Positions 44-53,075 are shown, numbered from the whole stretch's first letter. The stretch: 58,249 nt of DNA, filler included, from Sphacelaria rigidula (GCA_964200075.2; 3 parts of 3 records of this genome joined end to end with filler, not necessarily neighbours in it), one strand, 5' to 3'. The notes: generated by a model not told the origin, from the sequence alone. Translations and numbers: made by a program.

Positions 44-374
44 TAACATGGTGGCCATACTACTCTCCTTGTGTCACCTGTCTTTTCCTGTTTTGACCTT
101 TATTATCTTCTCTCTTCATTTCTTTCGGTGTACACTTTTGACAGATTTGGCGTTTGTTTGTTTGTTTTTCGTTCTTTTCTCCCCCCGTTGAACTCGGGGG
201 AGCTACTTCTCACCGGTTTTCGTGGCGTTTCTCTTCTTATCCTTCTTTATTTTGGTAATGTGTCTGGTAAGGAATAGAAGAGACGGTATTGGAAAGGCGA
301 GCCCACGTCTGTGATCACGGGTTCGCGAGATCGGACTAATGGGCGGAAATAATAATAATGATAATAATGATAAT
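44..374 (+). mobile_element. SINE/LINE-like 3' end with (AAT/GAT)n tail
   Basis: Colinear with the reverse complement of about 53733-53980 (TAACATGGTGG..TACTCTCCT..GGTGTACACTTTT..GACGGTATTGGAAAG.CGAGCC..CACGGGTTCGCGAGATC); ends in an AAT microsatellite. Confidence 0.7.
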
Positions 375-600
375 TCGGGAACCGATCGGATCATGAGCTA
401 CCACCGCATTTGGCCCCTTACTCCATAATTCTTCGGTGCAGCGCTGGGCGCCGAGCACGGGAAGTAGCACAAAGGTAGCGCTTTGACTTCTCGGACCCTG
501 CGGTCACATAACTTGTGTTTTTGGACAAGTGATCTGAGAGTTCTCCTCGATGAGCTATTTTGGGCAGCTCATGAGCTGTCCGATGTGCGCCATTTTCCGT
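375..600. mobile_element. MITE-like dispersed repeat, copy A
   Basis: Reverse complement matches about 13800-14005 (CAGGGTCCGAGAAGTCAAAGCG.TACCTTT); inverted TCATGAGCT motifs near both ends. Confidence 0.6.
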
Positions 601-2434
601 CTTGTCTAGCATCTTAGAAGCCCAGAAAAAAGAGAATACAAAATCAAGCGAAAGCGCATTGATCTTGGAATCGAACAGTCAGAAACACGCAAGAGGGCGG
701 ACATAGTACTTACTGTCCCTAGTACACGGAGTCATCCGTATATATATTTTTCTTGTCTAAACCCATTAGCGACACCCATAGCTAAGAAAAGATAAGACAA
801 ACAAGAGGGGAAAGAGGCAGCAAAAAGTGATGTCGGAAATCAAGCAGTCAGAAGCGCTAAGCGGAGTGCTGTCTCAAGTATACACGCAGTCAAAATGATT
901 CCTTTAATCTTCCGTCTGCCAAGCTCTAGGGGACAGATACGTACCACAAAAAAAAAAGAAGGCATGCTTCGGGGTCACGGGGGTGATTGCCGTCACTGCG
1001 GTAAAATATATAACGCGGTCTGTCCCGACTGACCCACGTCGGCCGCTGTGCTGAGGTACAGTTAGACTTCAGTCAAGGCTCGAAGTGCTATTCCAAGTGG
1101 TGACGCACACACAACGACCGCTCACAAGTTCTACAGCCAGCATACAGCATACCCCATCAGACATGACGTCCACGTGACAACACAACAGGGGATACTGAAC
1201 AAAAGACTGACGCATTCTTGAATTCCTACTGACGCGCACTTTTAATATGTCAATGGAAACGTGTTGATTTCGAGGTGCTGTTTTTTAACGACATTTGGTT
1301 GATTGTTTGCAGCTTCCACGCAGCACTATTTTGCCCAAGGCGTGTTTCTCGGACCCGCGACCGCTTCTAACTGGCGGTGATTCGCGTAAAACTGTGTCGC
1401 ACCTCAACCCTTTTAGGTGTGGTGAGGGGGTTTCTGTGAGCTCGGCCATACTACTTTGTTTCTGTGATATGGCCAAGCACGTTTGCAAAGTGTTAGGCGG
1501 GTACGACCTCCGGACTGCAGCACAACAGTACTCTGATGGGGTACATTACGTGTATAGATGTGTGTCCCAGTGCCACACGGGACTCAGTGTATAGCAAATA
1601 TACAGGTGGTGCTGATTTTTTTGTATGCATTTCAGAGGCCGCGATGCTGGTTTTTCCTGTGTGCACAAAGTTCAACACACTTGACCCGCTGCGTCCCCTC
1701 ATCTGATGAAATTAATCCGACCGCACTTGGGCGAAATTTTTGGTGTGAGCATGACGTATGTCGATCGATTCTTCTGCGTCCTCCCGCCTTACAAGTGGTT
1801 GTTGTCGGTATTTCCTTTCTCTGTATCTTCTTCTTTGTCAGAGCTTGAAATGATGAGAAGTCTGGGCCCGCTGCCTCATCGTGGGTCGCAGAATGGATTA
1901 TCTAGGGTGATGACTGTTACTATGACCTACCTCTGTATGACCCGACCCGCTCACAAATAACCCCGGGCTAATCAACCCGAAGCGTACCCCCGGGCCTGTC
2001 ACCTTGGGACTGTCATCCTCCAATCCCCAGTCCGGGCTCGTCATATTCTCGTCCTGGAGGCTCCCTGTCCGGAGCCTTCCCTACCGGCCCACTCTGTGTC
2101 TCAACCAAAAACCTGACTTGCAAAGTCTGTCCTGTTCAAGTACACGTCGCGGCTCCGCACACTCCGTACCCTTTTCACCGAGTGAGGAGCTACAACCTAC
2201 TCACACACACCGTCCGGGTAGGATAAGTCGCACTCACTGTCCGACTGTCTTATGTGACAAATAATCGAAATACATATTTTTTTCTCGTAAATATAGGTGG
2301 CAGTACCGCCTAGGAAGGAGCAGGAGGAATATATTGTTATGTCCCAGCATCTCGCCATCGTGAACATATCGAGCTCCACATGCCCTCTCGGCCCGGCTGG
2401 GGATGCTGCGAAAACCTAGCGTACTAATGCTCAC

Positions 2435-6270: not shown

Positions 6271-6914
6271 GAGCTGCGTTGAGTCGTCAGGTTCTCGCCT
6301 TTTATCCCTCCACCTGCAACCAATGACTCGTCCCTCTTCCGTGTTGCTGTTGCTGTTGCTACTACTCCTGTCTACGCTCGACGCGTGGAGCAGATTCCGG
6401 GGCAACAACGTATGAACGTGGACGAGATGGATTCAAAAGGGCGACGAGTGACCAACGTGTGCGTGTGTTTTCGACTTTCGTTCCCCGTTTTTGTTCCCGT
6501 CTCCTGCCGTGTGGACAGCGCAAACGAGACTAGAACTCAGCAAAGACGCCCTTATCCCTCTTTTTCAAGAGGAGGGCGTTGTTGCCGACGCGATTGCGCG
6601 CTAGTGGTGCTCCGCTGAGGGCAGAGTAAACATGCTATTCAACAACAAATAAGTACGTGTACAGCTATGAGAACGGGAGGCAGGTACAAGGAAGGATTCA
6701 TAACAGTTCAGTTTTTTAAGTTCAGGTGTCACTGCAATATGACTATAGTATACAGCTATTCCGGAGAAATTATTCTCTACCGTGGTTTGGAGTTACTCTT
6801 TTACCTCTAGAGCTTTGTAGATACTCACGGGGTCTTTTTTTCATCTCATGCACATGAATGTACATAACACTTGATTAAGTTGTTGTTTTTCATATTTCGT
6901 GGAGAGTATGCGGA

Positions 6915-7093
6915 AATAATAATAATAAATAACAATAACAATAATAACAATAACAATAATAATAACAATAATAATAATAACAATAATAATAACAATAATA
7001 ATAACAATAATAATAACAATAATAATAACAATAATAATAATAATAATGATAATAATGATAATAATGATAATAATGATAATGATAATAATGATA
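6915..7093. repeat. Compound (AAT/AAC/GAT)n microsatellite
   Basis: Read directly; about 60 trinucleotide units. Confidence 0.97.
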
Positions 7094-8248
7094 CTGTACG
7101 ACGTAGTACAATTCAACGAACGGGACTTGAAACAAGACATCGAAAAAAAGCAAAAGTGATGGTGAATAACTAAGTACAAGGACGAAGATAACGCCATGCC
7201 GCGAAACTCAGCAGCACACTCCGTCCCCCACACAACACCTCGTTGTCTTCGCTTGGGAACTGCAGGTGAGAATTATGAACAACACCAGGCTGCCGTATAC
7301 TCGACATAATCCATGGATCCTTCGACGGTCGTTTATTTTAATTCGTTCTTCATCACCTCTTGTGTTCTGACATTCAAATAACAAACGCGTATTGCCTCGT
7401 CCCTCACCACGCACGCGTGTATTTTCTTCTAGTTTCTTGTATGGGGGAAAGATCGATGGTGCACAATTGGTGCCGCGTTTTGTACTGCTTGTCTACAAAA
7501 TGGTGTACACGCGAATACTACTCTCACGAAGCCGTCCCCGCAAACACTGATTGCACGGGGCATCCGTTGAACTTGAAGCAAGTCAGACGTCATGCTGTAA
7601 TCCGATCCTCGTCTCCAGGTCGCCCAAATCTGCAGCCGCGCTGCTGCTCTAGTTTAGTGGACTTCGTTTTTCTTTGATGTTCTGCTGTCGTCGGATTTTT
7701 TATTTCTGGAGTAACACGGGGTGTTGTGCCATTTACTATTTTCCAGTGTCCGAGAGGGCTGTGGCGGCACGTGTGCCGAGACGTCGGTATTGGAGAGTGG
7801 ATTCGGACTCTCGGGGTGTTGAGGTGTCTGATGTCACAACGAACATCACACCGCTAGTCTCCGTGAACAGCGTTGGGTGAAGGAAAAAGATTCGCGCCTG
7901 AAAAAACGATGGCCTTTGTTGACGGCGTATCGTCAGATACAGCCAAAACAACCGTACAGTCAGTTCTGAGTGAGGTAGTGGAGTGCGTCTGTCTCGGAAA
8001 TCCCTCTAGGTGGACGAATAAAACCAGGCTACTACTCTTTCGCCTAGTCCACGTACGCCGTTTCTCCAGCCCGATAAGTTGAAACCAAACGTTACAAACA
8101 CATTTCTCAAGCCTCAGGACGCCTCTCAAAATTCTTCCCGCCCCCTGTTTGCTGTACTTCGTGCCACCGTGGATCCCCAGATAAGCCAAGACTAGACGGC
8201 ACACCTCAGCCCCTTCGATCTCCATCAACCGATTTTTTTGCCTCAAAA

Positions 8249-19356: not shown

Positions 19357-19456
19357 NNNNNNNNNNNNNNNNNNNNNNNNNNNNNNNNNNNNNNNNNNNN
19401 TTAATTAATTAANNNNNNNNNNNNNNNNNNNNNNNNNNNNNNNNNNNNNNNNNNNN
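19357..19456. other. Assembly gap linker N44-TTAATTAATTAA-N44
   Basis: Exactly 100 nt with a six-frame stop linker; identical to the second gap. Confidence 0.97.
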
Positions 19457-20620: not shown

Positions 20621-21353
20621 AAGGCAACTTCTGTCAAAATTCTATTACCCCAAGTAATACCGGCAAACCTGAGACGCCTAATTCAACTCAGCCTGTGGTA
20701 GTCGATAATAGATCGCAGCGCGATGGTCATCACCTCTGAATATGGCTTCGCTTGACGCCCCAAGTCCACTTGGAGGCAACGTACCAAAGCGAGGAAAAAA
20801 GTATTGTTTTTTTTTTCTACACATGTATCGCAGCTTCCACCATATGTCTACCGAGAAAGAGGACACAAGCAGGAGAGTACTGGTAGGGGAAAACAAGTTG
20901 ACGCACGAGGGAAGCCTGCGTGCGCCCAGAAAGCCGCCTGCAAGCTTGCCAAACACCATAGAACCACAGCGTCGTACTGTCCACCTCCCATATGTACCCT
21001 ACCACACATCCCGATGTTACAAGCCCAATCCTTGGCACCCGCGTTTCCACGGCCAGGTACATACCACAAAGAGGTGTTCAGACTGCCGGTTGCTACGAAT
21101 ATACCGGTTCTTTATTTAGGGTCAGCCCTAGATCTTACTAAAATCTGTCGTGATTCCCGCATCTCGATACTATACACTATGCGGCAGCTTTACTGACGAC
21201 GCTTGCTTTTCCTCCTGGCTATGCCTAGCTTATCGTTCGGAAGCTAACTCGGAGCCACGGACAAGAGGACGCTTTGTCATCAGATCTAGATGTCGACAAA
21301 ATGGTTGTGCAACAGTGCCACGCTCATTTGGAATAGCTTAGGTTGGTAATCAC

Positions 21354-38810: not shown

Positions 38811-38910
38811 NNNNNNNNNNNNNNNNNNNNNNNNNNNNNNNNNNNNNNNNNNNNTTAATTAATTAANNNNNNNNNNNNNNNNNNNNNNNNNNNNNNNNNN
38901 NNNNNNNNNN
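38811..38910. other. Assembly gap linker N44-TTAATTAATTAA-N44
   Basis: Same 100-nt linker as at 19357-19456. Confidence 0.97.
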
Positions 38911-39407: not shown

Positions 39408-42400
39408 AGATATCTCACGTCAAAACTGTTCATCGTCCCAACTCCAATATTACTCACGTGCGCAGCGATCAGCACGGATGTCCATCCCGCGATGTTGCGG
39501 AGGCTGCAGGACGTGGCCCCTCAGGTTGTCCTTGCAGTCACGGACAACAGAGACACTTTTTCGAAGGTTTTATTGGCGGGCGCACTGTCCTCGCCATCCG
39601 CGCATGACTCACCATCCGCCCGCGACTCGCGCTGTGACAACATGTTCAACTCCATCTCTGACGCGGCTACACGCTGGCTGGCGGCGTTGTCCCACCCACG
39701 CCCCAACTACCCCGTGGCCGATGTCAGCAAATCGCTGGTGGGACTGCTCCACCTCGCTTCCGACGCTGCACTGGCGATCATTGACGAGCCGCGAATGTGC
39801 CAGGCGCCAGACCCGACGGAAGCGTTCATGGATGTAGCCAGCGGCTCATGCAAGCCGAGACGCAACATTTTGTTCCGTTTATTGGGCGTCATCCTCGAGT
39901 GCTTGCCGGGGCCTCACACGAACGCTAGAGCCAAGTGCGCGTCAGTTACGCGGGGTGAATCAACAGCCGTAGCAAAGGCAGATAGGAAGGACGCGAAGAA
40001 AATTCGTAAAAAAGCTCTCCGGAGTGTCGCACGTATGGCCATGGAGTCGTTGCAAAAGCTTGCTGGACACGTGAATGGTGCTCCGGCTTTGAAGCACGTT
40101 ATTGAGGTGATCGACAAGAAATGTGACGGACGGGGCGCGGCACGGCATGGGAGAGGTGAAAGGAGCGCTGCGTCGGATGATGGAGGTGACGAGATGCAAG
40201 AGAAGTCCAAGACGTTGACCGGAATGGGGCAGGATGTGTGCGATGCATTCGCCACGGCTTTTGCTTCCGGGATAACTGTCGGTTTGCAGGTGAATGTCGA
40301 CAAGAGTTTCTTGTCATGATTGTGTGACGGTGCCGTTTCCTCGTCGCTGAATGCCATCGCAACAATTTTGGGTAACCTGAAAATGTCGAGAGCGACTCAC
40401 GCGAGTCTTCATATCAACTGAGAACGAAGTGGCTTTGGTGAGCGGTGATGAAGCTTTATCCCGACACGAATGTGTCCCTTATGCCCCGTGAAGGCATTTT
40501 TTTTAACTGCAGTCTGAGCTCACCAAAAGCACTATCCCTCGATGAAGTGAACATTTTGTACACAGCTGAAAAGCAGTTGGCCCTTGAGCTTGACATGCGA
40601 CCGACCGTTAGTGTCATGTGGTCATGGTTACATTTAACATCATTGCACGACCCGTCATTGATCGCTCTCTCGGCGTGACCGGCTCGCTCGTTTCCTTCAG
40701 GAGCTGGCAGGATATTCCAGCTCGGGCGGCGCCTGGCTTCTCATGGAGGCCATTTCTCAGGCTATTCCGAAGGCTACCGATTCCGCGGACACTGGCGAGT
40801 CTTTCTCCTGCAGGACGCAACTATCGTGTATTCTTGCGACCCTGGCGATCCGGGAGCTGAAGAGAACTACAACCTCATCAGCAAAGAAGCGTGGAGGGCA
40901 AAGACCAGAAATTGCAGCAGAATTTGTGCACGTCCTCGCGTACTTACCGGTTTGTGCGCCGTTTCTTCCGTGCACCGATCGCGCCATGTCCCTCTTTGCC
41001 AATGATCACTTGTCGACTGGGGGCCATACCGAAATTGTGGAGAAGGGCTGTGCTTCCGAAATAGCGTATGCTCTTGACGCAACTGGCGGTCTTCCTCCTG
41101 TCACGCTCGGAGACACTCTTCACACTGTGCTCACGTTGGTGTCGTGGGAAGTTGTCGGTACCCCGTCGGTGCAAAACACAGGTGGCACCCAGCCTGGAAA
41201 AAACATCGAGATGAGGAAAATGCCTGGGGGGGATGCTTCATCAGTTGTGTCGGGAGCTGTCGCCTCAATTTTGCTCGCGCGAGGTGATGCCGCCAGTGAG
41301 TGTCCCGCCGGCAACAAGGCGAAAATGTCCCCGCTCCTAATTCTGGGCGCCATGGCAATCTCGGCTGCGTCCACTCTGTCGGACCCATCAATACAACTTT
41401 GCGATGATGCGCTAGTCAAAGTGAGCGCTGGAGTTCGGGCGTTGTGCGTCGCTGCAACGATGGTTACGGCTGCGGCTCAAGGCGGCGCTGGTGAGGATGA
41501 GACGCAGGAGGACCGGCCAGGCGTGGAGTTGATTTGCGCACCTGATGTCGTGGCGGTTTTTCCTGCGGCGATTCTGGCGGCTTGCTGTGAACACAGGGTG
41601 CGTATGTCCGTTAAAGTCATCACTACATTTGGATTCGCTGATGTGGGCAACGTGTGGTCAAGTACTGAAAGCGGTAAACACTTGAGCGCATTGTAGCCTT
41701 GATGCTGCGCGTCATTTGTGCAGATTGCGGATGACCGCACCATGCATCCCTTTTTGTGTTGGAACATGTGTATCCGGGTGGATGATTTAAAACTCTCCTG
41801 GGATGATAACCGCCGCCTCGTCGGATGCTACTCTGGTGGCACTCCGGCACAACCCGTGAGGCTGAACAGCGGTACTGAAGCCCAGGAATAGCAAGCGCCG
41901 ATGCCGGCTGCTGCTCTCGGAGTAGCTCTGTCTTCGTGCGATGGTGCCGATGGCTTGAAGGGATCAGTACCCACGGGTGGAGATATTTCGAAATAGGTTA
42001 TCCTGCAAATTTCTCCACCAGCTCGACCCTTAATCCTGGCCGCGCTACATTTTGTTGCAGAAACCGTCGATGCACGGAATCAACGCATCATTTTCCCTCC
42101 TTGATGGTTCCAGCAGTGGGTCTTGAGATGAACGATGTTTTTTTCGACAGTGTGTCGACCGATACAACCAGCAGTATTTTTTTTCCCGACGTTGTCTTGG
42201 ACCAAGGGATGTGAGATTCGAGCTGTCGGCTCTCTCCGTCCCGTTGCTTGTACAGGGTTGCACCCCAATCTCATCCTATTTTCCCCCTTGCTCCTCTGGT
42301 CACCACTCAATCGATACGCCCGCGGAACAGGCGCTGCGAGACGCTGGCGTTTTATTTATCTCCACTGTTGCCACACATGGGTATTCGCTGCGCGAGACCC

Positions 42401-45400
42401 CCTCGGCGGAACGGACTCCGTCACCAAAGAGTACGGCTGGGGGGAAAAAAAGGAATGCCACATCAAAGACGACTAGTCTTGATTACCACGACGACAACCA
42501 CATTATGCCCGTTGGAGGGGAGGACGCTGTTGTGGCTGAGTTGCCCGCGCCTGTACCGGTTGCGTTGTCACCTCCAGATTTGCATTCGATTGTAAAACTT
42601 GCTGGCATCTACGCTGGGAAGAAGAGCGAGTGGGGAGTGGGCGACGTGAAGAGACATCTTGCGGGTGCCTTGGTAAGTGTCGTGACCGTCGAAAAACTCT
42701 TCCCTTGACCAGTGGAGGTGAAGTCCGTTTCGGAACGAAGATTGAACGACTTATGGAGCGGAGAAAAATTCAACCCCAAGACCGTAAGATGAGTCTATCT
42801 GGATCATGCACACGTTTTTTCACTCGAAATTGAAGCCGATTCAACAGAAGTAGACTGACCTTGCCGTCTACGGGTTGATCTTTGTGTCGGACATGTCAAC
42901 TCGTACCCATCCAACATTTTCGGTGACTTTTTCTGCAGGACAATATTTCGGGAGCCAACATGAAGTCACCTCAACGGACGTTGATCGACCGGGAATCGAG
43001 GGAAAAGTTGGTACACTATTTAGTGAGCTGGGCGGCTAGACTGGGATGGCGTGAGCCAGCAGCCGCGAACGTCCTCCTGGAATGCGTGGAGTGGGGAGGG
43101 TCCTCAAGGTGAACATGGTGGCTTCACGGGGTACCCCATATACCGTGTTGCTCCCCGGCACAACACTATCCGTCTGAATATCACCTCATCCCAACTCGAG
43201 GCAGGTCAAAAACGTCAATATTTCTTAACATCGAAAAGCCCAATGAACAAAACACCCAATACAACACATCCGCGGGAATTGACCGCTCAAACCTGTTCCC
43301 ATCGACTGTGTGTCCCCTCCCCTCTGGGAAATGTACCAGAGAAACATGCATGCCGCTTCTACGACACTGCCTCAACTCTCCAAACGCGGGCGACCAAGCT
43401 GGGCTTCTGAAGTCTCTCCTGCGGATGGCAGCATCACTACCCTGCGACAAAAGCAGCTCAACCACGACAGCACCGGAACTGCCTGATACGATCGACACGC
43501 CTGGGAATTCCAAAAAGAAGCGGCGCAAATCCGGCGGAAAAACAGAACCAGAGACCGGCGCGCAACTCGACCAAGAGGCACCCTCCGACACGGCTGAATC
43601 ACTGTTGCACCTAGCTCTCCACTCACCTGGAGTACCCCAGGATGTGGCTCTTGATGTGCTATCGACCCGCTCTTATGTGGCCCTCGAGTCGGGAGGTATA
43701 GTTGACAGGCAACGTAAGGATCTGCTGAGGTTGCTGGTAGAGGTCAACTTACAGGGTCCCGATGGCAACGCGGTAGCAGCGGCTGCTGCGGCCTTACGAA
43801 TGGTGCCGTCGGATGTAGCGGCGTTCATCGTGGAGCTCGTTCCGGATGTTGGTGAGGGCGGGGCTGCCGGCGCTGATGACACCGAGGTATGTGAGGGATT
43901 TCAGTTGTTGCGATCGTCCATCAATGACAAAACTCGTGCGATAGTGGCGATGTCTGGCTGGCGGGCAGCAGTAACGTCCGGGCAAACTCCGTCACTCTAA
44001 AAAGGTTCTTTTCGGCACGAGCTAAATTGCTGATCCGCAACATGTTCAGCTTCCCGCAGTTTGTATAGTGAACCCAAGAAGAGTTTAGCAAAAGTTGATG
44101 AAAGAAAGGGTTCACGCAAAGGATGGCCGACCGCGCTCCCCTTTGCCTCTCGGCGTGGACTGAACCCATCTACGACCGAGTCTTGCATTATGGCAGCGCA
44201 AGATTACCGTTTGACAGCGGGGAGCTTCTGGGCAGTCATGATCTCGTAGTTCCCACTGATACCCCCGACAACCAGAGCCCGACCATTCAATTCCCCGATA
44301 TGTCGGTGTATGGATACTTCACTTCGTCAGCCGTCCGCGAGGAGTCACTCGGACGCGCGTATTCAAATGCTCCCTGAAATCGCGTTGTCTGTGTGATAAC
44401 GGTCGATTGACTCGGTAACTTTGTGCCCCACATCTTTTTTTCTTCACACCACGCCGCTTCCCGTGCTCCGACTGTCGCGAACGAAAATAGGCATCAGGGA
44501 CATCGGCTACGAGCACATTGCAGCCGAACTGGATCTCTAGGCTGAGTAGCCTCATCGAACTTTCCCAAATTCTTCTCGGCCCAAATACAACGTCGTCTGC
44601 GATAGCTACCGGTAACGGTGCTCATGTTCAACGGTCACGTTCCGCAGATCTTCAACAGCGTTCGACATCGACATCGTCAAGCAAGGGATGGGGTGGCGCT
44701 GCATCCCGTGCGATCGCACGTCCGCTTTTCGACACTATACCCGCGCTCGTCTCTATCATCCGCAGGAATGGCCATGCAACGGTGTCCGGTCGACCCGTTC
44801 CCAGCGGAGATGGTACCGATGTGGACAAGCGCACGATAAGTAACTTGGGCGACGCGGAATCGACGATGGGAAGCGATGTTGACGTTGCTGAATATGCCTT
44901 GTGGTTGACGATGGATATGCTGACGATGGTGCTGCGGAAAAATAAGGGGAGAGGCGGTTACGACGAGCACATGGCTAGCAATGACGCCAAGAAAGTGCTG
45001 GCGTGTGTGGAGGATGACCCGAGCCCGCAAACGAGGCGAGTATTGCGAATCGATACGCGGAAAAATATTCTGGTGCGCGAGTCACGGATGGGGGTGAATC
45101 AAACAGCGCAGATCGTTATCTGAAAAAACGTACACTCCACGAGCGCAATGACGATGTTAACATTTTGGAGATCTTCGATACGAAGAAATGCTCGACATTT
45201 CCATGCTAATGCTGAGCGCTCGTCGAGACCAAAGCCTTGTGTCGAACTCGTACGTGTCGACTATGAGAAGACCGCGAAAAATAATCCCGACCGCGCTATG
45301 ACGATATCTCATCTAGAAGTGAGATCTTGTTTTGAGATATGCTCGATTTTTCCATGCTAATGCTGAGCGCTGGAGGTGGGGCAGTTGCGGATTTGACGTC

Positions 45401-48400
45401 TAGACGTTCCAGTGTGAATTTCGTTGAAATTAGATGACTTCGATAGCGAGTGTATAGACGTTCGTGATTCGACGCCGCAAATACATCCTTTAGGTGAAAA
45501 CAAAAGGTGGTGAGGGGGGGATGTAAAAAGTAACGAGACAGCGGTTGAATATTTGTTGGAAAAACAGGACGAGACGTGAAATATCCACGACGTGTCGTGG
45601 CCCTCAGCCATGAGCAGCGCCCAGTGCTGAAGTTTACCTCGAGTTCTATGATGCTCATTCCAACTGTCCCTGCCACAAATTTAACTCTTGGACCTTTGTT
45701 GGACCGTCGTACCTTGCACCACACAGGAACAGCGCCTTGGGCCTCCTCTCCGCCATGGCGGTTCTTTACCCATCTGCCATGGCTGCGAGACTTCGCTCGC
45801 TTTTGTGCGCTGTCAGTGATGCTGCCGTAGCAGGAATGGAGAGCACTGGTCACGAAGGCGGTAAGGTCGCTCTTCTCCAGACCCAAGCCGCCGTACAAAG
45901 CATGGTGCCCGCACTACGTTCGTACGGTGCGCAGGTTGGCGTTGGAGCGCACTTTGTCGTCCAGGTAATACATGCTGTGCGTCGGCTGTATTACGAAATT
46001 CATTTTTTACTGTATTCATTTTTGGACATCGGTACTTGAGCTTAGTCTGCCGTTGGAGCACTACCTCTTGTGCTGTTGTTCTCGAGCGCGATTCGGCCTA
46101 GACTTGCCCGGTTTTTGTCGCGATCAATGCCGTCATGTAACCGAGCTGTTACAGCCGATCATATAGCTCATGTTGTCAGTTCTCCCATATTGAATTATCT
46201 ACTGTCATGCAGACCTTCGTGGATGCTTTGGGAGATGCGCCCGTTCACACGCGACGCGCGTTGTTCGGGACCTTGGTCGACGCCCTTGGTGAAGACTCCC
46301 TTGCTGTCATAGCCTCGGTGTTGTTGCGCCGCTCCTCGTTCATGATGGGAGCAACAAAAAAGGAGAGACATCTCGTTCTAACCCGTGACGAAGAGCCGGC
46401 GTCGAACCTGGTGGAGTTCGTGCATCAAACCTGCCATTTCGCCAGCGCGCGATCTCAGGTAGGCGGGGGTCCACAAGACACTCTGTCGTGCCTGTGCGAC
46501 AGGATAGACGGACTATGTCCTCTTTGTTGCCGTCGTCAAACACCCTGAATATTCCAGTATGTATACGAACCGCCTGACGCCTTTTCGAAATATCGCGGGT
46601 TGTCCCAACCCAATGACAAAAATGTCATGGACTCTTCACTATGTTCGTCTTGCGGCCTCTCATGCGCTTGGATCTCATCTCGCAAGCAGTCACGAACAAG
46701 CCGGGATATTTGTCCTTCCCATTTTCTCCTCTCTCACCACATTGCCGACCATAATGAAGGTGGCGATGCTGTTCAGGCTGGTGCAAGCCTGCCACGGTCT
46801 CACCGCTGAGGCTGGGCTACGTTCTGGGGACCTTTCGGGGAGCGCAGTTGATGACGCCGTCGGCTGTCTACCTATAATCTCACGCGGCGCCGATAACATG
46901 AGCATGATACTGTCCCTCGATCCCGAGGCGGAAGTAGGCCAACCCTTTTCCCAGTCATCCTCTCCCACTTTCATGGCGTTGGATCTTCATGCTCTATATG
47001 AGATCACCGACAAACCGACGGAGAAGAAAATCAAGAGCGGGAGTCGAGACCGAGACGAAAATAGTAATGACACAGGCTCCCGTCCCTCAACCCTCGGACC
47101 CTTCCTCGAGAACATCCTCGTCTTTGTGCGAGAACACTTGCTGTCGAAGCCCTTGTTGATGGCCGTGGCGACAGTGGAAGAGAATCGGGACGGGAGTGAG
47201 GGGTGTAACGTGGTTGGTGATCCGGAGAAGATCCAAGAAGGCTTTCTGATGCTGTGTGAGGTGCGCATGTATACCTGCGGATCGAATGAAGTCAACTTGA
47301 TTTCCCCTTCTCTGTTCACTCGTACGAAGTGGAGGGAAGGGGGGAGGGGGTGACAGAGAGAGTGAGGACACGCGGCTCCCGTCACGGTGCACGTGAAGCA
47401 AGCGTCTCTTTTTTGTTACCCCACATTGATGAGAACAATTAGCAAACCGCGCTCCTCTTTGCCTCTCGGCGTGGACTGAACCCATCCACGACTGAGTCTT
47501 CCATTACGGCAGCGCAAGATTACCGTTTGACAGCGGGGGGTATCTGGGCAGTCCTGGCTTGTAGTTTCCACCGAGATCCTGGACAATCAGAGCCCGCGCA
47601 TTTTACTGGTAGCACGAGTCGGATAGACGATGACATCTGGTAGGAGCTGTCTTGGCAGTGTCTCTTCCCACAGTCGAGGACTTCGACCGCCATCGTCTGG
47701 TTGCACACCGGGTTGTGTCATGGCGGGATTCAGACCGTGGATTCACGATAGTGGGAGAATTTGTTGACGAACGTGATTGTTCGTATCACTTCTCCGTGTT
47801 GATCATTGAGGAGAACAAGATTAGAGCAACAATTATCCGCAATGCGATGTTTTCCTCGCTGTGATGAAAAGGATCCTACTGGTCAACACCTCGTGTGGGC
47901 GTCAGATTAGAACTGACCTTGTATGACACGTCCCTCTTCCGTCTTTTTGACCACCTGGTCGCGATGACAAATGCGGAAACAGGAGCTGTTGCAGCTTTTG
48001 CGAACGCTTGATGTATGCCAGCACCAGAGCTCGGAATCACGTCCACCCACGACGAAGAAGATGAAGTCGGGAGGGTTTTCGCCAGAGTGGCGCACTCTTC
48101 AAACCCTGACGTACTCGGTGTTGGAGACCGTGCAGTCTCTCTTGTCTTTGCCGTCGTTTGTTGCGGTCATACAGGAGCTTCTACAGAGCCCGGTGAGTGA
48201 AATTTTGAACCGATGTTGGTCGTTTTTCCCAGATGGGGAGGAACGAGATACGTTTCAAGACAAGTTCCATACGTTCTCTTCTCGGTAGGAGTGGAGTTGA
48301 GGGGAGTAGGGGTTGCCTTGAATCCGTTTTTATTTCGCGATTACGATCACGGTCAAAAGTCCTCTCCCTCGGCAGTCGAATTAGTTGGCCTTTGCACTTT

Positions 48401-51400
48401 TGCACAGATTGTGGTCGCTGGGGATGAATTTCCTTGTAAGAGTCGATTCGACGGCGAGTGAGATCGATCCTCAAAGGTTATCGAATGACGAGCGTGGACC
48501 TCGGGCATTCATGCGTCCCTGTACCTTTTACCCGTTGGGGTTGAAGGCAGATTGCCTTGTCTGTGGCACTAGTTGTCGACGTCAAAATGCGCAGGAGATA
48601 TACTTATTGCGGCGGGGTAACTACCCCACCTGCCCTGATTTGTCCAATCCTGCAAAAGGAAATTCGAGCCAACTTTCCCGCCCGCGACCTGTCCCGTTCG
48701 CTACGCGGATATACAGACCCGAAACATTCCCATCATCGCTGCATAGGCCTTGACGTGGGAGAGCGTTCCGCGCTTCGTTTCTGTTTCTCAACTGAGCCGC
48801 TGCGTGTATCCACGCACGTGATATTGTCGAGTGCACTAACCCGATACTGTCGTGCCGTCTACCATACGTTTTCCCGGCCTCATGTCCTAATTCTGTGTGG
48901 TGCCCATCAGCATTTCGAATGTACCACACCACTTTTTTTTACGATATTAGACGGGAGAAGCCCATGCTGTTGTTTATGCTGCTGCTGCAATCACCATTTC
49001 GATTTGCCGTGAGCTTCCCACAAGTAGTGTGAACTGTCATCAGTGCGAAAGGTTCGATTTCCCACTAGCCTCCCGACAACAGTTTTGGGTTGTCATGTGC
49101 CCCTCACGAGTAATTCGTGTCATTGGCCTCGATGCAGACATATCCTTGAGAAAGCTCATGTTCATCCCGTTTTTCCGTCGCTGGGGTGCGTGTCCGAGAG
49201 GCCAGGATCCCCACCTGCGCCGCAATGCCCTGCGAATGTTCACAGCTCGACTTGACCCAGACGGGAGATCGAAGTCACGTTTTTCCTCCGGAGAAGAAGC
49301 GCTTCTCATCGATATGCTTCCCCCTCTCAGTCGAGTGGCGATCGGCCGTAGTCGTGCTCGGTCTGATGAAGATGCCATGGACGAGGATGACGATGAATCC
49401 GGAAACGGTAAGGAAAATACTCTAATCCGGCAGACGGCCATGCTGAGCTTGGACGTACTGGCGCGCGTATTGGGGAGGCGGTACCAGTCGGCGTTCATGA
49501 GCGTGCTCGACGACATGACGGAGGTTATTGTGGCCGGTGAGCCGGGCTCCCCTTCGGGTGCGTTCTTTGATATTGGTGAACATGACACGGGGTGGACGAT
49601 GGTCCCACACCCCGTAAGTATTGTCATATAATCATGCATGTCGTAGTCATGAGACCATCGACAGTTGAGGGGGGAAGGAAATATGCTGCTAAGTAAACAT
49701 ACACGATAGTGGCTGGAAAAGGAAGCTCTCCAATTTTCATTCATGTGTCATGAAAATGATGGTACATGTGGATGACGGTACTGAACAAATTTCGGTCTTC
49801 GAATACACGAACCGTGTACAAATATGTGACAGCGACCGTCATCAATTTGTTCATTCCCCCTCGACCGTCGCCACTGCCCTTGAACGTTTGCTCTCCTCCT
49901 CGTGGGTTGATAACATCCGCAACAGCACCGGGACGGCACATGGATGACGCACATTCCTCATCCAGCGACGCTAGTCTCTCTCTTCGTTCAACTGCCTTCC
50001 TTCTACTGGCAACTCTTTGTGCCGTTCTCGGCGTACGAGCCTTCCCGCATTTCCCCCGCTTCTTCCCGCCGATGCTGAAAGCTTTGGAAGAACGCTCCCC
50101 TCAAAACCAACAAGGCGCTCCACGATGGTCGTCGAGCGCCTCATCCCCTGGAATTGAGACGGACATCGTTGTGGGCGCTAACGAAAGTGAGGGAGGAAGC
50201 GGAAGCCGCTACGGTGGGTTGCTGTGGACAAGCGTTCTTTCCGCGATGGCCACGGTTGCCGCTAGTCTACCCTCTTTCCTAAGCCCCCACTTGCCGAGAA
50301 TTATGGCCATAGCCCTGCACCCCGTCGCCGAAGGTGATGACCCTGGAGGAGCCGCAAGTAGGCGTGCCGCCGATCGGGTCTTATCGTTGCTCGCAGCGGG
50401 TGTGGAGCCTCGTTTGCTCGTTCCTGCTGTGTGTGGCGCATACAATCAATGTGTCATGGGTCAAGATGGGGAACGTGCAACACGCGTCGCACGCCTTCTT
50501 GCGTACCTTCAGGAGGTGAGAGACCGGGAGTCATCGTGGGTACATATTACGGTCATACTGTGTAACATGCTCTGAAAAGCGAAGGCGACAGTTGCCGAGA
50601 TGTCTGTTTACACTACCCGTCCTGCGTGTATCTGATGTACCTGCATGGCATGTTTCGTTTCTCGTGGCTGACAGATCACTGCATCCCTGGACAGAGAAGC
50701 AGTCGTTGCGTCTCTTCCTCAGTTTACTCGTCTGCTGACACAAGCTATGGACTTCCGACGGCTTCATGCTTGCGGGCTAGAGGCGGAGGTGGGTGTCGTC
50801 TCGTGGCCGAGTCGTACCCTCGTGATCGCTGGTGATCAGTCGTCCGAGTTCATTCCCACTACGAGCAGGGCCAGCGTAGACCCGAATTTCAGATCTCGAG
50901 GAAAATGTCGGCGACACGCTCGAGTTGGGCCGTGGTCCGAATGTTTGAATCCTATATCTACCTATACTTGAGGGAAATTGCACCTATACTGCAATTTCTA
51001 CATAACCCCCGATCGAATCATTCAGCGGATAACGACGAATTTTGATACGGACATACCCTTACCTGCACCCAAATAATCTATTTCGTCATATGGCGCACAC
51101 CAGTTTCCATACTAGAATAGGTATATTGGAGCGAATGCGCTAGATCAACTAAACCTGGATATCACACATGAATTTTGAGTGTAAACGCGCTACTCATGAA
51201 CTCTTCCTCCTCCAGGTCCGTACGAGAGCAAGTTCGGTCGAAGGAGAAACATCTGCCGCTACAGTAGCCATAGTAATGAAACTCAGTGAGATGGAGCTTC
51301 GCCCGTTATTCCTTCACCTGTGCGAGTGGAAAACAGCGGGTGAGGGGGACGGAACCAAGACCACCGCAGGGGCATTGGATCGACGGCTATCGTTTTACAC

Positions 51401-53075
51401 AGTATTCGACGGGCTAGCTGCTGCGTTGAAGGTGAAATACAAAATTGCGACTCTGCGCGATGATACTTCACGTTGTGGAGGGCTGTGGCTGTACGTTAAA
51501 CCATGACCCTCACGGCACCGAGGTGCGAAGGCGATTGCTTGTCTACCTTCACGACGGATTTGAACACTCCTTGCATGAAAACGTTCAAAATGCAAAACAG
51601 AGTCGGCTGGGAGGGGAAAACGTGGAGAGAGTACTGTCGGTGTGCCAATGTAGCCTACGCCGAAAACCATAAGGGAAGACTCTCTTGTCATTTCACCTCA
51701 CCGTCCTGTTGCCCTCCTGTAAACACTCGGATATGAAACGCCTATGTGATACAGCGCATATTCCGACCCAAGGAGTAGAGAAAACTGGAAAACCATTGCA
51801 GTCGTGCCGCACGCGTCGATCAGTTCTTGCATATACCGCGTGGCGTCGGCAGTACCTCACAAGTGCGAAAGAGGGTGCATGTTTCATCTCGACATGTCCA
51901 AACAGCGTGATCTTGACTTGTCGTGTCCTGAAACAAGTTTTTTTCAAGCCTTCCGTGACCCGACCGTCCCAATAATCTCTCACGGAAACGCAGAGTATTT
52001 TTACACCGTACCTGGCGCACGTTTTGTCGGACTGCTGTCAAGACCTCCTGGCCGCTAGCGAAGTCGCCCAACATGCCGGCGATGAAAGGTCGAGCAGTTC
52101 AACAAGCGAACGCAAGAATCGGGCGACTGCGGATACGTCAACATCTGTTTCTCCGGAGTTCAGATGGCGACGCTCCGCCGTCGCCCGTGTCATCTTATCG
52201 GCATTGCGCCGATGTTTCCAATCGGATCGCAATGACTTTGTGAACAAAGTGCGATTTGACCTCATCATGCCGGCGGTCGTATCTCAGTTGGAATGTGGCA
52301 CCGACTATGTCGAGGCATCAACAGACCGTTCATCCACTTCGACCGTCTCCGAAGCCGGTAAAACGGACACTTTGACATCGGCTGTAGGGGATCGAGGTGT
52401 CGCTGCCTGTCGGCGTTATGCCGAGGAGCTGGTGGGGCCCTGTCTGGCGCAACTTGCGTCTGTGTCTGCCAAGGATGCTCTTTGGAAGGCGCTTGTGAAT
52501 GCGGTGCTATTGAAGACTAGATCGAATAGATCTGCTGTCAGGGTTGCGGCGTTGGTGTCTCTGCGGCAGTGTTTCGAAGTGGTGGGTGAGGAGTTCTTGG
52601 CGCTCCTGCCTGAGTGTTTACCGTTCTTGAGCGAGCTGCTTGAGGTGAGACGCGTTCATCTCGTGCTAAATGTAGTATGTCACAAGAAATGTAACTGGCT
52701 CCGAAGGAATAATCGCACGTTGGAGTATAGTTTGGTCATTCCCACCGGGTCAGCACCCTTCGCGAAAGCATGGTATTGACGTTATACAGGAGCATATTAT
52801 GTAATACCCGAAAGTGACGCTCGCCAGGGTGCACAAATCGACACTTTCAATTACCTCGATACGTGACGTTTCATAATTTCTCACTGGCATGGCCGGTGCT
52901 TCAGTCGTTTTTTCAACCGTCAACATTATTTCCTCCACATGCGATGTGTCCGTGTTGCTGCTTGTAACCTTCTTCACGACAGGATGAGCATCCAGAGGTG
53001 GAGAAAGAGGGCCGCCGCCTGGTGAAATACATCGAGGAGAGTCTTGGAGAGTCGATTGAAAGCTACCTGAGCTAG
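39408..53075 (+). CDS. UTP10: UTP10/HEATR1 (SSU processome HEAT-repeat protein), 5'-partial; exons ~39408-40289, 40701-41597, 42331-42672, 42939-43108, 43340-43886, 44491-45035, 45727-45964, 46213-46458, 46760-47260, 47983-48192, 49206-49557, 49926-50515, 50675-50788, 51216-51431, 51994-52644, 52983-53075
   Basis: C-terminal HEATR1/BP28CT motifs: VMKLSEMELRPLFLHLCEW, LWKALVNAVLLKTRS..SAVRVAAL, GEEFLALLPECLPFLSELLE|DEHPEVE..IEESLGESIESYLS*. Also TFVDALGDAPVHTRRALF and PQTRNSALGLL. Exon phases are consistent. The first acceptor is uncertain and the N-terminal exons are missing behind the gap. Confidence 0.9.
40434..40527 (+). ncRNA. Box C/D snoRNA in a UTP10 intron, with an 18S rRNA guide
   Basis: 10-bp terminal stem TTTGGTGAGC/GCTCACCAAA; box C GTGATGA at 40445-40451; box D CTGA at 40514-40517. 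Guide TTTTTAACTGCAG is complementary to conserved 18S YUGCAGUUAAAAA. Confidence 0.85.
44130..44281. repeat. About 150-bp dispersed repeat, copy 1 (UTP10 intron)
   Basis: ACCGCGCTCC..TTTGCCTCTCGGCGTGGACTGAACCCATC..GGCAGCGCAAGATTACCGTTTGACAGCGGGG..CAGAGCCCG, shared with 47447-47596. Confidence 0.85.
45139..45223 (+). ncRNA. Box C/D snoRNA, snR53/snoR53Y-like (18S Am796-equivalent), copy 1
   Basis: 8-bp stem ACGAGCGC/GCGCTCGT; box C ATGACGA at 45148-45154; box D CTGA at 45212-45215. Guide TTCCATGCTAATG is antisense to 18S (C)AUUAGCAUGGAA. Confidence 0.88.
45291..45373 (+). ncRNA. Box C/D snoRNA, snR53-like, copy 2 (tandem paralog)
   Basis: Box C ATGACGA at 45298-45304; identical guide TTCCATGCTAATG; box D CTGA at 45363-45366; shorter stem (CC)GCGC/GCGC(T)GG. 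Confidence 0.82.
47447..47596. repeat. About 150-bp dispersed repeat, copy 2 (a different UTP10 intron)
   Basis: Direct repeat of 44130-44281. Confidence 0.85.

Follow-up and report, generated by a model that had tools for sequence, protein, structure and literature searches.

A probable intron-borne box C/D small nucleolar RNA in the brown alga Sphacelaria rigidula, predicted to guide methylation of an 18S cytidine next to the U36 site

A conserved segment of the 18S ribosomal RNA (rRNA), GUUAAAAAGCUC, pairs with the D guide of SNORD36 (U36/snR47; RF00049), a box C/D small nucleolar RNA (snoRNA) that is often intronic. The nucleotide methylated there is the first A of an A-run: yeast Am619 (snR47) is equated with human Am668 (U36) and Dictyostelium Am612 (PMC8817022), and the same A is Am623 in Arabidopsis, Am622 in tomato and tobacco and Am604 in O. 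tauri (PMC11542601, PMC8053127). The plant snoRNA SnoR13 methylates a U in this part of the 18S rRNA, Um615 in Arabidopsis, which precedes Am623 by 8 nt (PMC11542601, PMC8053127), and a further C/D RNA, TtnuCD9 (RF02286) of Tetrahymena thermophila, was found experimentally by Andersen and Nielsen, according to an excerpt of PMC3273799. Here we compare with these systems an element at positions 40434-40527 (+) of a 58,249-nt stretch of DNA (filler included) from the brown alga Sphacelaria rigidula (GCA_964200075.2). The whole stretch is called the window below, and the RNA of the element the window RNA. We conclude that this element is probably an intron-borne box C/D snoRNA belonging to a widespread guide family, which would act beside U36 and is predicted to specify 2'-O-methylation of the 18S C that pairs with G40509.

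The 94 nt of the element carry a box C and a box D enclosed by a perfect terminal stem of 10 bp. Its parts, as read from the sequence, are the following:

40434-40443 (+): 5' arm of the terminal stem, TTTGGTGAGC, all 10 bases of which are complementary to 40518-40527
40444 (+): G40444, a single unpaired spacer base between the 5' arm and box C
40445-40451 (+): box C, GUGAUGA (DNA GTGATGA), to which box C aligns in all weak C/D matches from Rfam
40452-40460 (+): 9-nt spacer AGCUUUAUC preceding the D'-like box; it may serve as a D' guide, though it is short
40461-40464 (+): D'-like box CCGA inside UUAUCCCGA, a degenerate candidate
40463-40476 (+): internal hairpin, GACAC-GAAU-GUGUC, that the minimum free energy (MFE) and centroid folds predict between the D'-like and C'-like boxes
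40488-40494 (+): C'-like box GUGAAGG, a degenerate candidate with similar elements in relatives
40499-40513 (+): D guide, with the core 40500-40512, UUUUUAACUGCAG (DNA TTTTTAACTGCAG), followed by T40513 (U in the RNA)
40514-40517 (+): box D, CUGA (DNA CTGA)
40518-40527 (+): 3' arm of the terminal stem, GCTCACCAAA, which closes the stem with 40434-40443 without a mismatch

The general layout of a box C/D snoRNA is thus found: a terminal stem brings together RUGAUGA, close to the 5' end, and CUGA, close to the 3' end, and an antisense element of at least 10 nt ends 1 nt before box D. For the internal C' and D' boxes, only the two degenerate candidates listed above are present. The terminal stem is kept in the MFE fold, which has an energy of -30.5 kcal/mol (z = -3.39), and only 1 of 200 shuffled sequences was as stable. 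Both strands of the window were also scanned for RTGATGA followed at a distance of 40-140 nt by CTGA, with a flanking stem, and 200 block shuffles of the window served as control. The scan returned this locus, with its stem of 10 bp, and one weak candidate with a stem of 6 bp. In the shuffles, both boxes were accompanied by a stem of at least 9 bp in 1 of 200 cases and by one of at least 7 bp in 6 of 200. Chance is therefore no serious explanation for the geometry at 40434-40527.

The element lies in sense orientation within an intron, at distances of 144 nt and 173 nt from the 5' and 3' splice sites, respectively:

40290-40700 (+): host intron, 411 nt, GT..AG, supported by spliced contigs of runs X1, X5 and X6

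The evidence for splicing consists of assembled contigs of sequencing runs. In the contigs of X1, X5 and X6, position 40286 is joined to 40698 (cut +3), with 411 nt skipped between GT..AG borders, whereas one X2 contig spans 40290-40700 as an unspliced stretch. It should be noted that X1 and X5 are of equal size and have identical contigs, and may thus be one data set. These contigs show a genuine intron in an expressed host mRNA, and so confirm the earlier assignment of the RNA as intronic. The interior of the intron is represented in X1 and X5 by two 151-nt contigs with a depth of 2 and in X6 by none, a coverage that is uninformative either way as to a small RNA.

The guide is best considered together with its target. 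The core 40500-40512 is Watson-Crick complementary to the 18S sequence CUGCAGUUAAAAA, and U40499 can wobble with the next G, which makes 13 Watson-Crick pairs and one wobble pair with YUGCAGUUAAAAA(G), a universal 18S site. The calculated duplex (Duplexfold) has 14 bp and an energy of -17.1 kcal/mol with the CUGCAG form of the target, or -15.1 kcal/mol with the UUGCAG form, while 1000 shuffled guides give a mean of -4.2 and a best value of -13.9 kcal/mol. The universal eukaryotic 18S primer EK-565F reads GCAGTTAAAAAGCTCGTAGT, as seen in an excerpt of bioRxiv 10.1101/2020.09.26.308536, and the target C is the second base of this primer site. The ruler for methylation is the fifth base upstream of box D (PMC6461891, in excerpt), here G40509, and by this +5 rule the target is the C of YUG[C]AGUUAAAAA, with which G40509 pairs.

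By the standard +5 rule, the predicted target is the 18S C located 5 nt upstream of the U36/snR47 adenosine. Subtraction of 5 from the published A positions puts it at about C614 in yeast, C663 in human and C618 in Arabidopsis. The difference from U36 is one of register. The Rfam consensus of SNORD36, GAGCUUUUUAAC-c-CUGA, has the first A of the run at +5, whereas the window RNA reads UUUUUAACUGCAG-U-CUGA, with five extra bases that move the ruler to the C. The U36 arrangement, in which the first A of UUAAAAAG is at +5 and AAC is followed by one base and CUGA, does not occur in the window RNA, where AAC is followed by UGCAGU and CUGA. The target of SnoR13 is also different, being a U that by position arithmetic lies 3 nt upstream of the predicted C.

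A methylated C 5 nt upstream of the U36-type A is absent from the tables for yeast, human, Arabidopsis, tomato, tobacco and Dictyostelium (PMC8817022, PMC11542601, PMC8053127), and the excerpted part of a Neurospora table has none at the corresponding site. At the level of titles and abstracts, literature searches with the guide sequence and snoRNA gave nothing relevant, and searches for C614, C663, C618, Cm614 or Cm663 together with snoRNA gave nothing on this 18S site. The preliminary description of the locus had proposed the geometry of a 10-bp stem, 1 nt, GTGATGA, CTGA, the closing stem and a 13-nt guide, which agrees with the sequence. The guide to the conserved 18S stretch that it claimed corresponds to the EK-565F site and the 14-bp duplex, its placement of G40509 at +5 on the C five positions upstream of the U36/snR47 A is in accord with the SNORD36 consensus, and its remark that the site was unfamiliar in yeast and human holds for the tables of both.

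We now consider TtnuCD9, which proved to have the same guide. The RF02286 consensus ends in ...AUUACAUUUAACUGCAAgCUGAA (...UUUAACUGCAAgCUGAA), with the same spacing to box D. Its guide UUUAACUGCAA, one base and CUGA are identical to window positions 40502-40517, except at G40512, which is A in the consensus, and at the spacer base. Since both the guide and its distance to box D are shared, the same 18S cytidine is predicted as the target. The two RNAs differ in their build, TtnuCD9 being AT-rich, 55 nt long and devoid of a long terminal stem, as compared to the 94 nt and the 10-bp stem of the window RNA. The gathering score of the TtnuCD9 family is 70 bits, which the window RNA does not reach; a relative on the metagenome contig L063 (see below) scores 18.4 bits. 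The guide is thus already in the curated library, as a narrow family from a single genus. In the Rfam search of the whole window, no family reached its gathering score. At E values up to 10, the window RNA has generic C/D matches only, the best being SNORD33 with 24.8 bits against a gathering score of 44, and both SNORD36 (RF00049) and TtnuCD9 (RF02286) are outside these matches.

The guide is by no means restricted to these two organisms. Metagenome contigs were scanned with the pattern TGATGA, a gap of 35-65 nt and TTTTAACTGCARNCTGA, and at least 122 copies on at least 120 contigs match it. Clustered by their inner parts at 75% identity, the listed copies form 28 groups. Both boxes and the register of the guide are as in the window RNA, and many copies have paired terminal stems of variable sequence. 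In contrast to the window RNA, 75 of the 122 listed copies have, ahead of an internal D'-like box, a second guide, ACGGGCGG; a further element, TTGGAGCTG, is carried by 7 of the 122. At the position of G40512, A is found in 112 of 123 copies (window included), and in L100 and L112 the guide is longer, to AGCUUUUUAACUGCAA, which extends the 18S match. For the 28 unique copies with neither ACGGGCGG nor TTGGAGCTG (window included), the terminal stem has a mean length of 4.93 bp, while 300 permutations that mismatch the 5' and 3' flanks of these copies give a mean of 2.47 bp and a maximum of 3.39. The stems hence vary in sequence while their pairing is kept. Flank permutation was used in place of column-based covariation because the alignments misplaced the inner parts. 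The features that the pattern did not select, namely the D' elements, the paired variable stems and the division into 28 clusters, support the copies as real snoRNAs. When 40 of the 120 contigs were searched against Rfam at the gathering threshold, no match was obtained for the guide RNA, and the sole match was a U31b on L024.

On the basis of these comparisons, we define a putative guide family by ...UUUUAACUGCA(A/G)-N-CUGA, which would include the window RNA, TtnuCD9, the diatom copies described below and many environmental eukaryotes. Two suggestions of the preliminary description have to be modified as a result. A lineage-specific guide is contradicted by the same guide and register in RF02286 and on at least 120 environmental contigs. 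As to the Rfam match that was said to remove the novelty, no family is at threshold, so there is no direct match, but the same guide is already present in the TtnuCD9 consensus.

The relation to U36 is illuminated by contig L031. This contig comes from a diatom, as its coatomer gamma shares 62% identity with the Thalassiosira exigua protein. A copy of the C-guide RNA is located at 7257-7336, within 7250-7344, and a U36-type C/D RNA at 6372-6466, ca 0.8 kb upstream on the same strand, the pair flanking a PAM16-like open reading frame (ORF; 6643-7091). For the U36-type RNA, SNORD36 is the only Rfam family below E = 1, with 28.0 and 24.9 bits, both short of the gathering score of 30. The U36-type guide, GAGCTTTTTAAC-C-CTGA, occurs on L031, L027 and L040, each of which also has a copy of the C-guide. 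The presence of both kinds of RNA on one diatom contig means that the C-guide snoRNA is distinct from the U36-type one and is not a U36 replacement. The genomic setting is different from that in the alga, since the L031 copy follows the PAM16-like ORF while the window RNA is in an intron of a gene that is probably HEATR1-like (see below). RNAs of the window type may have descended from U36 through a 5-nt slide of box D. A comparison of the inner parts of the U36-type and the C-guide RNA of L031 gives z = 1.93, with 21 of 500 shuffles as good, which hints at a duplication without showing one.

Some resemblances between the window RNA and individual relatives extend beyond the guide. A D'-like box CCCGA and a C'-like box containing GGG are common to the window RNA, L027, L031 and L045, the C'-like elements being CGTGAGGGCAT in L027 and CATGAGGGCAT in L031. 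The 9-mer TTATCCCGA is shared by the window RNA and the diatom contigs L031 and L027. It gives the best local match among 85 relatives, reached by 3 of 300 shuffles, which is not significant over 85 comparisons.

It is necessary to set out the results that weigh against the assignment of the window RNA to a widespread family of 18S guides. The pairing with 18S is derived from the universal conservation of the site rather than from the 18S of the alga itself. In the Rfam searches described above, the window RNA has no family at threshold, and TtnuCD9 is unmatched even at E values up to 10. The identical register across the 122 copies is a consequence of the design of the pattern, and only their abundance and the unselected features count. 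For the 63 unique U43-like copies (those with ACGGGCGG), the stems have 1.94 bp as compared to 1.62 bp after permutation, i.e. there is no excess. A global alignment of the window RNA with the L031 copy gives z = 0.81, with 114 of 500 shuffles as good, and in local alignments no more than 3 of 300 shuffles equalled the match for 2 of the 85 relatives, which is roughly the number expected in 85 trials. As there is no significant similarity outside the boxes and the guide, the shared guide may reflect either common descent or convergence. Apart from these objections, an 18S motif was found in none of the viral contigs and an 18S in none of the 120 loci of the relatives, and a tblastn search with the exons of the host gene and with Ectocarpus proteins had no match in these loci.

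These points have to be judged together with the other possible explanations. The one to which we give most room, although it is unlikely, is that of a genuine snoRNA which binds 18S without depositing a methyl group, whether as a chaperone in folding or processing or as an orphan. Some C/D snoRNAs with good rRNA complementarity indeed do not methylate, such as TtnuCD32 of Tetrahymena (PMC6315972, in excerpt), and methylation at the predicted C follows from sequence rules only. However, a guide that abuts a canonical box D, with unbroken Watson-Crick pairing across the +5 position, is the arrangement of a methylation guide, and this exact register recurs widely. Slightly less likely again is a decaying or silent intronic copy that has lost its expression. 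The degenerate internal C' and D' boxes would fit with such a copy, and the mature RNA is a prediction made from the DNA, but no defect is seen in boxes C and D, the 10-bp stem or the 13-nt guide, and the element is in sense orientation in a gene that is spliced and expressed.

Less probable than either of these is the proposal that the window RNA is simply the U36/snR47 orthologue of the alga, which would methylate the first A of the A-run, or both sites. In its favor, the guide covers the 18S segment of U36 including the whole A-run, the C'-like UGAAG resembles the SNORD36 consensus UGAaGu, and no other U36-type guide was found in a search confined to the 58-kb window. What speaks against it is that the A would then have to pair with the tenth base upstream of box D, while the established ruler is the fifth (PMC6461891, in excerpt), that SNORD36 is missing from the Rfam matches of the window RNA at E values up to 10, and that U36-type snoRNAs in the canonical register stand beside copies of the guide on L031, L027 and L040. 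An accidental coincidence of motifs in an intron, finally, has a negligible probability. Nothing apart from the general frequency of short motifs argues for it, and a stem of at least 9 bp together with both boxes, in itself found in only one of the 200 window shuffles, is here combined with a 13-nt match to a universal 18S site that is placed exactly at box D. A guide RNA for the cytidine, widespread and working beside U36, hence remains our preferred explanation, and we consider it probable.

From established C/D snoRNA-protein biology, from which expression, assembly and methylation are all inferred in the case of the window RNA, the following course of events can be proposed. The intron 40290-40700 would be spliced out and debranched, and exonucleases would trim it to the 10-bp terminal stem, thereby freeing the RNA. 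Box C/D snoRNAs are stable RNAs of ca 70-120 nt with fibrillarin, Nop56, Nop58 and Snu13 as their protein partners. The freed RNA would assemble with the core C/D proteins, including fibrillarin, and the D guide at 40499-40513 would pair with YUGCAGUUAAAAA(G) of the 18S rRNA. Fibrillarin would then 2'-O-methylate the C that is paired with G40509. The snoRNA would thus operate alongside U36 and not in its place.

A more far-reaching scenario, to which as a whole we assign somewhat less than even chances, is that the guide is an ancient module, and that a conserved 18S Cm, 5 nt upstream of the U36 site, exists in ciliates, diatoms, brown algae and many other protists. With their overlapping targets, U36 and the C-guide RNA would act in turn on this stretch of the pre-rRNA, and the second guide of the C-guide RNA would vary with the lineage, being of the U43 type, directed to CAGCUCCAA, or missing.

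A precise prediction follows from these results: in brown algae and diatoms, a universally conserved part of the 18S rRNA should carry a 2'-O-methyl-C. Our literature searches turned up neither a map of rRNA methylation nor a curated snoRNA catalogue from these groups; for Ectocarpus, the excerpt of PMC4513859 mentions only computational snoRNA predictions, which are not listed, and a RiboMeth-seq study of Tetrahymena is cited as unpublished in the excerpt of PMC6315972. The guide and its register are already represented by TtnuCD9, and the window RNA adds a brown-algal member, with a predicted site that is absent from the yeast, human, plant and Dictyostelium tables considered here. An isolated Rfam entry from Tetrahymena is now linked to a broad set of environmental eukaryotes, which suggests a protist methylation site that the maps of model organisms have overlooked. 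It also appears that two snoRNAs, one of the U36 type and one with the C-guide, can have overlapping binding sites in one genome. For the annotation of the alga, one snoRNA gene is added to an intron of a probable ribosome-biogenesis gene.

The second guide of the environmental copies deserves some comments. The D' element ACGGGCGG, found in the 75 relatives mentioned above, is the 5' end of the universal small-subunit (SSU) reverse primer 1392R. In L063 the element reads CGGGCGGA-CUGA, and its +5 position falls on a C that we take to be the one known as yeast Cm1639 (snR70) and human Cm1703 (U43). These two positions are equated with each other in PMC8817022. The 75 copies, for example at 320-383 (+) of L063 and 574-654 (+) of L024, therefore combine the guide for the 18S C with a D' guide resembling that of U43/snR70. 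For L024 and L063, the Rfam matches at E values up to 10 do not include SNORD43 itself, and the SNORD43/U43/snR70 guide ACGGGCGG, which is complementary to the SSU decoding-centre strand, is absent from 40434-40527. Among the U43-like relatives, L011 encodes a NAPRTase whose only relatives are metagenomic and unnamed, besides a ciliate match of 30%, and Pfam gave nothing for other flanking ORFs. On L024, a U31b snoRNA (RF01285; 38 bits, gathering score 37) is located at 1038-1108 (+), ca 400 nt downstream of the C-guide copy, and the two form a snoRNA cluster of the plant or green-algal type.

The element TTGGAGCTG is carried by L008, L040, L065, L066 and L094, and L008 has a tandem array of three copies spaced by ca 155 nt. 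It is complementary to the 18S sequence CAGCUCCAA, which, judging from a standard 18S primer site, presumably precedes the target of the D guide by a few tens of bases. The copies on L006, L007, L044 and L069 are AT-rich, ca 59 nt long and end in ...TTACATTTTAACTGCAA-N-CTGA; they resemble the TtnuCD9 consensus and may be of ciliate origin.

The weak candidate from the scan of the window is found at 20691-20733 (-), or about 20677-20741 with flanks. Its GTGATGA and CTGA are just 42 nt apart and its 6-bp stem includes a G-U pair. Stems of at least 5 bp are present in 45 of the 200 shuffles, so this candidate may be due to chance.

We finally turn to the gene that hosts the intron. Downstream of the snoRNA, exons of a HEATR1/UTP10-like gene can be recognized:

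44911-53069 (+): HEATR1/UTP10-like exons, to which the Ectocarpus protein P0003 maps collinearly on the same strand

This small-subunit processome gene has at least 10 exon blocks with 39-77% identity to their Ectocarpus counterparts, values that indicate that the alga is no close relative of Ectocarpus. The ORF at 51976-52779 (+) contains the BP28CT domain of HEATR1/UTP10 (Pfam PF08146, E = 1e-07) and is 54-57% identical to PF08146-carrying proteins of Ectocarpales (Ectocarpus species and Hapterophycus). The spliced X1 contig extends 4,818 nt past the aligned stretch and, if it is collinear with the genome, reaches beyond 44911. Judging from the strand, the collinearity and the length of the spliced contigs, the intron with the snoRNA probably belongs to the upstream part of this HEATR1/UTP10-like ribosome-biogenesis gene. 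The exons that flank the intron have no match in Pfam, only weak solenoid-like leads with scores of at most 0.89 in a protein Atlas search, and only fragments of 228-349 amino acids in a search of representative proteins. The window also contains four runs of exactly 44 N each (176 in total; 19357-19400, 19413-19456, 38811-38854 and 38867-38910), either masked sequence or gaps. They form two pairs, the members of which are 12 bases apart, and the second pair precedes the first long host-gene ORF by ca 0.5 kb.

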